From a virus (Duplodnaviria > Heunggongvirae > Uroviricota > Caudoviricetes): a stretch of DNA of 64,000 bases. Under the pieces are notes generated by a model. That model did not search any database. It saw nothing but the letters and a program-made list of their open reading frames with translations, and was not told the DNA's origin. Below are positions 28,126 through 28,803 of this stretch, in pieces. The position numbers and the translations under genes were made by a program. The first letter of the stretch is position 1. Every line of letters begins with the position of its first letter. The DNA lies in IMG/VR virus record IMGVR_UViG_3300017565_000001, positions 77,741 through 141,740 of that record, one strand, 5' to 3'.

Positions 28126-28141
28126 TTTCACAATATTGTGA
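28126..28141. promoter_or_regulatory. perfect 16-bp palindrome TTCACAATATTGTGAA (operator-like), upstream of the GGDEF gene
   Basis: Perfect palindrome read directly. A partial repeat ATTCACAATTCACA lies at 28151-28164, just before the ATG at 28165. Confidence 0.45.
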
Positions 28142-28164
28142 ATATCGCTTGATTCACAATTCAC

Positions 28165-28803
28165 ATGGCAGTAAACTTGGTTCATCGAACTACTGGAAGC
28201 CAAGTAATGCACGCCAACACAATCCAACCTGTCATTGCTGAACTGGAAGAATTGATTGCTTCCAACCCCAACTTGGCTGATAAGTTGGGCAACATAAAGA
28301 ATCAAATTCAAGAAATGATTCAAGCAATGGTTGGATCCTACAAAGCCGAAATGAACGTTTTCCGTTCCGCCGCAGAGGTGGACGGCTTGACCCAGTTGGG
28401 TAATCGTCGTGGCTGGGAAAGTAAAACAACTGAATACTTGGATGACACTGATGTCGCCGTGGTGTTCCTGGACCTGAACGGACTCAAGATTGTAAATGAC
28501 ACCCAGGGCCATGAAGCTGGTGATCAAATGATCAAACAAGCAAGTGACTGCATCAGGGCATCTGTTCGCCCCACCGACTATGCAGCTCGTATTGGTGGTG
28601 ATGAATTTGTCATCCTGTACACCAACTATCCCGCAAGTGCTGAAACCCTTCAGAACAGCATCTACCGCATCAAACAACAATTCGCAGGCGCGGACATCAA
28701 AGTTAGTGTTGGTGGGGCCCTGCGCAGCGAAGGAGAGACGCTGAAGGATGTTATAGCCCTGGCTGACTCCCGCATGTACGAGGAGAAGCGAAGCCGTCGG
28801 TGA
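28165..28803 (+). CDS. GGDEF-domain diguanylate cyclase
   Basis: EVDGLTQLGNRRGWE at the domain start. RIGGDEFVIL active site. 212 aa with no sensor domain. Confidence 0.8.
   Translation: MAVNLVHRTTGSQVMHANTIQPVIAELEELIASNPNLADKLGNIKNQIQEMIQAMVGSYKAEMNVFRSAAEVDGLTQLGNRRGWESKTTEYLDDTDVAVVFLDLNGLKIVNDTQGHEAGDQMIKQASDCIRASVRPTDYAARIGGDEFVILYTNYPASAETLQNSIYRIKQQFAGADIKVSVGGALRSEGETLKDVIALADSRMYEEKRSRR

Follow-up and report, generated by a model that had tools for sequence, protein, structure and literature searches.

A predicted minimal diguanylate cyclase and an adjacent non-canonical tRNA-like gene in a very large phage genome

Several links between phages and cyclic di-GMP (c-di-GMP), a second messenger of bacteria, have been described: the phage peptide YIP activates the host cyclase YfiN and thereby raises c-di-GMP (PMC8085984), and c-di-GMP-induced PlzR blocks pilus-dependent phages (PMC11461919). 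Phages can also carry GGDEF open reading frames (ORFs) of their own, as annotated in Bacillus phage SP-15, Bordetella phage CN2, Microcystis phage MaAM05 and Pseudomonas phage Y10, and experimental work on a GGDEF enzyme encoded by a phage did not turn up in our literature search. Here, we analyzed a 64,000-nucleotide stretch of phage DNA (hereafter, the window; positions 77,741 to 141,740 of IMG/VR record IMGVR_UViG_3300017565_000001), which encodes a GGDEF protein of 198 aa at 28207..28803 (+ strand). As with YIP, a phage would here raise c-di-GMP in its host; YIP does so as a small peptide that binds a host enzyme, whereas in this locus the enzyme itself is phage-borne. The structural likeness is to DgcB of Caulobacter crescentus (6TTR) and to the GCN4-zipper-WspR fusion (3I5C), in which a dimerizing helix is likewise fused directly to a GGDEF domain with an intact active site (A-site) and RxxD I-site; the phage protein differs from both in its 198-aa length, in a short extra N-terminal helix and in having no upstream sensor or membrane part, and sequence identity to them is only ~26-28%. 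We consider it probable, at roughly 0.68, that the gene specifies a minimal diguanylate cyclase with its own promoter, which would dimerize through its stalk, make c-di-GMP up to a level capped by its I-site, and act through effectors of the host.

The protein matches the Pfam GGDEF family (PF00990) at 8.8e-30 and 104 bits (cut-off 23.8) and TIGR00254 at 93.6 bits (cut-off 37.4), and it contains the motif RIGGDEF. In an alignment to the solved cyclases 4ZMM and 4URS, the D..K..ND..GH..GD series, RxxD and GGDEF fall in register, and residues D89, K94, N97, D106, R128, GGDEF130-134 and K194 (198-aa numbering) are invariant or nearly so among 62 homologues, with the key residues also invariant in a 10-homologue alignment. 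The A-site, the metal and GTP ligands and RxxD are thus all in place, in agreement with a preliminary description of this DNA, which had claimed an intact GGDEF active site. The I-site, R121-P-T-D124, is intact as well and lies five residues before GGDEF, its R and D being conserved and nearly invariant. RxxD I-sites, which many but not all GGDEF proteins have, mediate product inhibition in GGDEF enzymes, and the intact site therefore predicts product inhibition of the phage protein.

An AlphaFold model (predicted local distance difference test, pLDDT, 94.3) places two stalk helices, at residues 3-19 and 21-56, ahead of a GGDEF fold. When this model was compared to the PDB with Foldseek, the top 50 matches were all GGDEF domains, with E-values down to 1e-12; the best full-length match was the coiled-coil+GGDEF structure of DgcB (6TTR_B; query TM-score, TMq, 0.74 over 191 columns), and the constitutively dimerized GCN4-WspR fusion was also among the matches. 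The GGDEF domain is preceded by nothing but a helical stalk of 55 residues, so that the protein does lack a sensory domain, as had been proposed. The further proposal that it is constitutively active is an extrapolation: the enzyme is sensor-free, but its intact RPTD I-site predicts inhibition by the product, and its stalk helix could bind a partner.

Among cellular proteins, the closest homologues are GAF-GGDEF sensor cyclases (P0007, P0010 and others), which are 35-46% identical to it across linker helix and GGDEF domain and share its 'ARIGGDEF' motif. As the GAF domain is absent from the phage protein and the linker helix remains, it looks like a GAF-GGDEF-type enzyme cut down to its linker helix and catalytic domain. 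GGDEF-like ORF matches occur in 136 phage records, several of which are unannotated metagenomic fragments, and all are <41% identical to the window cyclase; an IMG/VR scan with the cyclase protein returned no close relative, and a metagenome scan returned generic GGDEFs only, at 29-43% identity. Syntenic orthologues are present in five related contigs with the same gene order. Pairwise ratios of nonsynonymous to synonymous change (dN/dS) range from 0.06 to 0.31, with synonymous sites near saturation (proportion of synonymous differences, pS, 0.55-0.75), and the gene is under purifying selection. The stand-alone phage GGDEF protein of the preliminary description therefore holds up as an enzyme that is catalytically complete by its residues, has a fold confirmed in the model, and is maintained by selection.

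Its length requires correction. The ORF 28165..28803, given earlier as a 212-aa protein, is present, but translation almost certainly begins at ATG 28207 rather than at 28165, yielding 198 aa. This start is preferred because lengths of 198-200 aa are shared by an identical protein (P0001) and by four orthologues, whose identities are 86, 82, 70 and 56%, because a Shine-Dalgarno-like GGAAG (28195-28199, +), part of a purine run kept in relatives, lies 7 nt 5' of ATG 28207, and because in the most distant relative (L006) the upstream ATG runs into a stop codon, as ATG CAT TAA. The in-frame upstream extension (28165..28206, +) shows no coding conservation and probably consists of promoter spacer and 5' untranslated region.

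The 200 nt upstream of the gene are 89% identical among relatives despite the near saturation of synonymous sites, which argues that this upstream block is under a constraint of its own. Within it lies a candidate sigma-70-type promoter, TTGATT-17-TAAACT (28149..28177, +; TTGATT at 28149-54, TAAACT at 28172-77), whose two hexamers are invariant in 5 relatives while the spacer drifts. A sister element, TTGCTT-16-TAGACT, stands at 27772-27799 before the upstream 64-aa gene, and the general pattern TTGNNN-N16-18-TANACT(T/G) is found 11 times in the window compared to 3.75 +/- 1.9 times in shuffled sequence. Seven of the 11 sites fall outside long ORFs, 14-40 nt upstream of the next same-strand ORF, and the promoter class of the cyclase recurs upstream of at least six other window ORFs; sites of the form TTGNNN-N16-18-TA(A/G/T)ACT(T/G) occur on the + strand at 6699-6728, 8798-8827, 10191-10220, 27772-27800, 28149-28178 and 44747-44776, and on the - strand at 692-720. 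Given the invariant hexamers, the drifting spacer and the recurrence of the class upstream of ORFs, we read the block as probably a promoter of a recurrent, host sigma-70-dependent class, in which a possible operator spans the -35 hexamer. The GGDEF stop codon is directly followed by a 10-bp inverted repeat, GTTTGGCAAC / GTTGCCAAAC (28820..28851), and a strong near-consensus sigma-70 promoter with extended TG for the next gene (TTGACA 28814-19, 16 nt, TAATAT 28836-41). The -10 hexamer of this element (28814-28851), which is kept in 4/5 relatives, sits inside the loop of the repeat, and with repeat and promoter placed directly after the stop codon the cyclase gene appears to be bracketed as a unit of its own.

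The preliminary description had drawn attention to a different feature of the upstream block, a 16-bp perfect palindrome, TTCACAATATTGTGAA, at 28127..28142. The palindrome is real, but it is not a conserved element: its right arm is common to a conserved repeat, while its partly conserved left arm decays in relatives, reading ATCACA in L001, TTCACA with an altered centre in L002, CACACA in L005 and TTCATTCA in L006, so that it is changed in L001 and L005 and lost in L006. From TTGTGAATAT rightwards the relatives are invariant, with the repeat spacer alone changing in L006. The further copies that had been suggested as a check did not appear: there was no second copy in the 64 kb, even with 3 mismatches, and none elsewhere in 52 loci, in a search for palindromes and repeats that covered ~15% of the genome. 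Perfect palindromes with arms >=8 nt are expected ~0.97 times per window by chance and six were seen, of which TTCACAATATTGTGAA is the shortest and the sole AT-rich one; with about one expected, it is in itself not beyond chance. The other five, 20-24 bp in length (10570-10593, 12270-12289, 14045-14066, 21268-21291 and 51779-51798), are probably hairpin terminators, since they are longer and GC-rich and at least one of them (21268-21291) lies between convergent ORFs. An intrinsic-terminator role for the AT-rich TTCACAATATTGTGAA, which lacks a T-run, was rejected.

That the palindrome serves as the operator of a dimeric repressor or activator switching the cyclase gene, as the preliminary description held, is in our judgment unlikely. 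Its perfect 8+8 symmetry, a core CACA-N4-TGTG kept in 4/5 relatives, four TTCACA/TGTGAA half-sites within 39 bp, and a position of about -57 to -42 relative to the inferred promoter, which is usual for an activator, all fit such a role. Against it stand a left arm that is mutated or lost while the bases to its right stay invariant, a single copy in the window and all related loci, and a chance expectation of about one perfect 16-mer palindrome per 64 kb; moreover, no DNA-binding protein was identified nearby in family-profile scans. Judged from these comparisons, the 28127-28142 palindrome is not itself a regulatory element but mostly a local accident on top of a conserved block of promoter and inverted repeat. 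If an operator exists, it would be the overlapping inverted repeat TGTGAAT-N8-ATTCACA (28137-28158), which spans the -35 hexamer and whose arms are invariant, with a spacer change of CG>AA in L006. Searches of the window and all fetched loci for TTCACA-N0-20-TGTGAA and TGTGAAT-N0-20-ATTCACA matched at the orthologous site only, and to that site the repeat is unique. A half-site repeat said to overlap the start region is also present, as tandem ATTCACA ATTCACA at 28152..28165 (+), although only its first copy is conserved and the true start codon is not overlapped; ATTCACA is not enriched in the window (15 copies compared to 17.9 expected). Two known types of site were considered and rejected: the arms TGTGA/TCACA fit a CRP-type site, but their spacing is 12 (or everted with 4) and not 6, and TGATTCA resembles the TGCTTCA of a T4 MotA-box middle promoter, but its distance to the -10 hexamer is 15 nt and not 11-13.

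The same repeats could act in RNA. The palindrome starts 6 nt after the 3' CCA of a non-canonical tRNA-like gene (28033-28120, +), missed in the preliminary description and characterized below, and the inverted repeats might form hairpins in the 3' trailer of its precursor, as a processing or stability signal, or alternative hairpins that tune read-through into the cyclase gene. Besides the short distance from the CCA, this fits the absence of a terminator between the tRNA and the GGDEF gene and the pairing of UGUGAA with either the upstream or the downstream UUCACA, which is exactly how the minimum-free-energy and centroid folds differ; the consensus fold is a hairpin of 7-9 bp whose stem does not vary and whose loop differs in L006. 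We nevertheless regard an RNA role as unlikely, as 0/9 pairs show a compensatory change, the AT-rich stem is weak and not followed by a U-tract, and the same bases are accounted for by the -35 region of the promoter. For TGTGAAT-N8-ATTCACA, there is no compensatory change that would tell a DNA site from an RNA hairpin.

In the reading that we favor, a minimal diguanylate cyclase made under its own promoter, the gene would be transcribed from the host sigma-70-type promoter at 28149-28177, probably early, as the promoter class recurs before other phage genes. Two copies of the protein would pair via the long stalk helix such that two GTP-loaded GGDEF domains meet and make c-di-GMP, and binding of c-di-GMP at the I-site would cap the output. 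As no effector was found in the 64-kb window, the raised c-di-GMP would then act on those of the host; likely effects would be that motility and pili are shut down and the cell surface is changed, so that the cell stays put and competing phages are excluded. A motif search of the window revealed no second GGDEF and no EAL, HD-GYP or PilZ signature, and no Rfam family reached its gathering score in the window, which leaves no c-di-GMP riboswitch there. A putative HD-domain hydrolase at 45318-45917 (+), which the preliminary description had named alongside the cyclase, lies 17 kb from it and resembles a generic phosphohydrolase (PHROG 19425, 3.6e-25; HYHGLVH...FHD); its HD-like motifs are real, but it has neither an HD-GYP signature nor a link to c-di-GMP. 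As an HD-GYP phosphodiesterase it was rejected, having no Pfam or NCBIfam match and HxxH...FHD but no HHExxDGxGYP signature.

Several points weigh against this reading of the cyclase. The effector-gene search consisted of Pfam and PHROG scans of about half the ORFs and of crude motif regular expressions, over 64 kb of ~424 kb; the dimerization through the stalk we infer from fold similarity alone; the promoter TTGATT-17-TAAACT matches the sigma-70 consensus at 8/12 positions, which is under the scan threshold; and no clear terminator was found between the upstream 64-aa gene or the tRNA and the GGDEF gene, making read-through transcription possible. Finally, the intact and nearly invariant RPTD I-site would fit a c-di-GMP-binding role too. 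The protein might then be mainly a c-di-GMP binder, as a sponge or sensor acting via RxxD, or it might need a stalk-bound partner in the way that SiaC activates SiaD, and we consider such explanations quite unlikely. Receptor GGDEFs are known, and GdpX6 both synthesizes and binds c-di-GMP (PMC7996900), but a pure binder has no need of the catalytic residues, all of which are here kept under purifying selection. SiaD-SiaC was among the structural matches (7E6G), but the SiaD match has a root-mean-square deviation of >11 A, and the neighbouring small proteins are without recognizable family.

A very unlikely explanation is that the enzyme makes a different nucleotide signal, cyclic GMP-AMP (cGAMP) or cyclic di-AMP (c-di-AMP), as Hypr GGDEFs do, and interferes with cyclic-nucleotide defence. 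The GGDEF fold is common to Hypr enzymes, the Geobacter GGDEF 6D9M is among the structural matches, and phage proteins that interfere with defence signalling are known (PMC12657218). However, the closest cellular relatives of the phage protein are ordinary GAF-GGDEF cyclases, and PADLOC detected no defence family for the cyclase or for eight of nine other scanned proteins, with weak matches only for a kinase-like protein and for the product of 49264-50556. Moreover, residue D106, the D of 'GD', is Asp and not Ser in the window cyclase; this position, assigned from established knowledge, we take to be the guanine-specifying one, with Asp in c-di-GMP makers and Ser in cGAMP-making Hypr GGDEFs.

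The conserved block upstream of the cyclase begins with the unannotated tRNA-Arg(UCU)-like gene at 28033-28120 (+), which ends ...GGTTCAATTCC...CCA. No function ties it to the cyclase, and the two are neighbours only. Its elements (+ strand) are an 8-bp acceptor stem (28034-41 / 28109-16), a 5-bp helix P2 (28044-48 / 28079-83), an anticodon arm (28049-67) with anticodon TCT at 28057-59, a helix P3 (28068-70 / 28089-91) that forms a pseudoknot with P2, an AAGGA linker (28084-88), a T arm (28094-28108), and discriminator T 28117 followed by an encoded CCA (28118-20). ARAGORN called nothing on 28033-28120 in any mode (including -i, -mt and tmRNA), and the only Rfam match was tRNA-Sec, at 31.3 bits compared to a gathering score of 47. 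A tRNA-Sec reading was rejected on this score, on the anticodon (UCU, not UCA) and on the missing D arm; an intron-containing or mitochondrial-type tRNA, on the empty -i and -mt results; and a canonical bacterial cloverleaf, on the missing D hairpin together with the empty ARAGORN result and the lack of an Rfam match at gathering score. The gene is 95% identical across five relatives, and the few changes are compensatory: in L006 four acceptor pairs change, three by substitutions on both strands and one from G-C to G-U, and in L005 a C-G pair of the second helix becomes U-A. It is the single copy of its family in the 64 kb, in whose ORFs AGA and AGG make up 19% of Arg codons.

Elements of the same kind are widespread. 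A pattern search identified 32 further copies in IMG/VR phage contigs, often within tRNA arrays yet uncalled by ARAGORN, and a relaxed anticodon search found the same architecture with GUA, so that the anticodons of the family are UCU, CCU and GUA. Unannotated copies in cultured phages were found by blastn in Aeromonas phage AhSzw-1, T5-like Vibrio phages, Salmonella phage Arash and T4-like Acinetobacter phages, and a genome scan added 12 contigs of metagenome-assembled genomes, ten labelled Acidobacteriota (eight of these Pyrinomonadaceae) and two labelled uncultured bacterium. Members include L051 (1399-1487 and 1493-1578), L052 (1494-1579), L007-L046 and L135-L146. The family was aligned by covariance model (27 members), which replaced a structurally inconsistent MAFFT alignment. 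In this alignment 95.5% of cells are paired compared to 69.9% in shuffles, and 8/8 acceptor pairs and 5/5 P2 pairs change on both sides. P3, a helix of 3-4 bp, crosses P2 and is fully paired in 15/20 distinct sequences, compared to 6.2 +/- 1.9 with permuted partners (0/5000 permutations reach 15).

From 5' to 3', the family order is an 8-bp acceptor stem, 1-3 nt, the P2 5' strand, and a 6-7 bp anticodon stem with a 7-nt loop that has U33 and a purine at 37; then the P3 5' strand, an A-rich stretch, the P2 3' strand, an NGGN linker and the P3 3' strand; and finally a 4-bp T stem with a TTCAATT loop, the acceptor 3' strand, the discriminator and CCA, which is often encoded. Members with GUA have A73 in 7/7 cases and a first pair G1-C72 in 5/7 (the exceptions being L041 and L043), both of which we take to be Tyr identity features. 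The UCU and CCU members carry GGA in the linker, with an A20-like base, the identity element of arginyl-tRNA synthetase. The arrays around these genes point to decoding as well. In L043 and L044, the GUA element is part of fetched 23-tRNA arrays that contain no canonical tRNA-Tyr. AhSzw-1 has tandem CCU and UCU copies, and within its scanned 45-kb tRNA region no other AGR decoder exists among 34+2 tRNAs, the sole Arg species of the 34 canonical tRNAs being ACG. At E<=0.01 the family escapes the Rfam tRNA model, which gives canonical tRNAs nearby 32-69 bits.

Taken by their sequences, the tRNA-like genes thus show the features broadly expected of functional tRNAs, namely covarying stems, a T arm, an anticodon loop, CCA and a decoding slot. 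On balance, we lean towards the view that the first element of the conserved block belongs to a structural class of tRNA not described before, which would fill Arg and Tyr slots in phage arrays, with P2 stacking under the anticodon stem and the linker providing a G18-G19-A20-like GGA.

Among the nearest described molecules are the allo-tRNAs (8/4 or 9/3; Mukai et al., PMC5389517), which share the 12-bp acceptor branch, made here of an 8-bp acceptor and a 4-bp T stem, the 6-7 bp anticodon stem, and the occurrence in phages and Acidobacteria; UCU and CCU anticodons have been reported for 9/3 allo-tRNAs (PMC5389517). However, published allo-tRNAs (PMC7590224 supplement) have a V-arm hairpin and, 5' of the anticodon arm, a tRNA-Sec-like D hairpin with a long stem and a tetraloop, such as CCGTC-TGGT-GACGG, whereas in the present family the acceptor stem is separated from the anticodon arm by only 7-9 nt, which pair with the 'variable' region as P2 and are crossed by P3. 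Because the D hairpin is absent, we rejected an allo-tRNA reading of 28033-28120. D-armless mitochondrial tRNAs likewise have no D hairpin, but they are short and without a pseudoknot. The tRNA-like domain of transfer-messenger RNA (tmRNA) also lacks a D hairpin, and its strands after the acceptor and before the T arm form a helix enclosing the rest, but tmRNA is without an anticodon loop, and its length is 3-4 times greater. A literature search, including a 2020 review of non-canonical tRNAs (PMC7609411), found no description of a D-armless or pseudoknotted phage tRNA, and a recent paper describes all known bacterial tRNAs as cloverleaves (PMC11551756).

The arrays with tRNA-like members appear rich in unusual tRNA shapes. 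They also hold other oversized tRNAs of 84-93 nt, for Lys, Cys, Ile, Met, Glu and Asp, normally class I, as at 751-838, 5136-5222 and 5230-5313 in L013, at 3272-3363 and 3490-3580 in L043, and several in L046. We speculate that host nucleases which read the D region or the variable region could be evaded by phage tRNAs with a rewired core; Septu and retron-Eco7 are known to target tRNA-Tyr (PMC11555353, PMC13096335).

The window, by its gene content, is part of a very large phage genome. Its large ORFs match phage families, among them a topoisomerase II large subunit, tRNA nucleotidyltransferase, RNA ligase and glutathionylspermidine synthase, and the topoisomerase is closest to those of Sinorhizobium phage Phosso (63%) and Agrobacterium phage Atu_ph07 (57%). 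A megablast search of 26000-31000 against 50,697 phage records gave no nucleotide match, and a tblastn search with the neighbouring hydrolase, as a synteny test in Phosso and Atu_ph07, was uninformative. P0001, the protein identical to the window cyclase, is recorded on a 424,547-bp contig. By these comparisons, the cyclase is a conserved accessory gene of a ~420-kb phage clade distantly related to Atu_ph07 and Phosso.

Around the odd tRNA, at distances of <=6 kb, lie genes for a CCA-adding enzyme (22353-23567, -), a small P-loop kinase resembling polynucleotide kinase, PSTK or KTI12 (26403-26891, +) and an RNA ligase (32723-33754, +), which together resemble a tRNA maintenance or repair neighbourhood. 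Three paralogues of ~360-440 aa (17493-18569, 18578-19912 and 24603-25796, +) have a common N-terminal domain (PHROGs 6266, 2475 and 30990) and no assigned function, and a run of host-like metabolic genes at 36550-40759 (+) comprises a Na+/H+ exchanger, a saccharopine-dehydrogenase-like enzyme and glutathionylspermidine synthase. Downstream of the cyclase, the 5' leader of a gene for a SleB-like secreted cell-wall hydrolase (28965-29657) has a segment, 28902-28948 (+), that is invariant in five relatives and contains a perfect hairpin of 12 bp, ACTGAAGTCAGT...ACTGACTTCAGT (28913-24 / 28937-48), preceded by ATAAATA (28902-08), which resembles a T4 late promoter.

The cyclase is, by all its sequence features, a genuine and well-conserved phage diguanylate cyclase, of a kind already known, the phage-borne minimal diguanylate cyclase. 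It is an expected type of auxiliary gene from a very large and well-understood family, so that the surprise is moderate. If active, it would mean that a virus carries the synthase of a master bacterial second messenger in the form of a minimal 198-aa tool, and it would offer a testable case of phage control over the motility, surface or cell-cycle state of the host. The most unusual object at the locus is the adjacent non-canonical tRNA, which matters more than the cyclase. If true, a widespread natural tRNA that is pseudoknotted and lacks the D hairpin would change how tRNAs are annotated in phage genomes. It would also raise the question of how a rewired tRNA core is accepted by synthetases, RNase P, EF-Tu and the ribosome, and would matter for the arms race around tRNA-cleaving defence systems.

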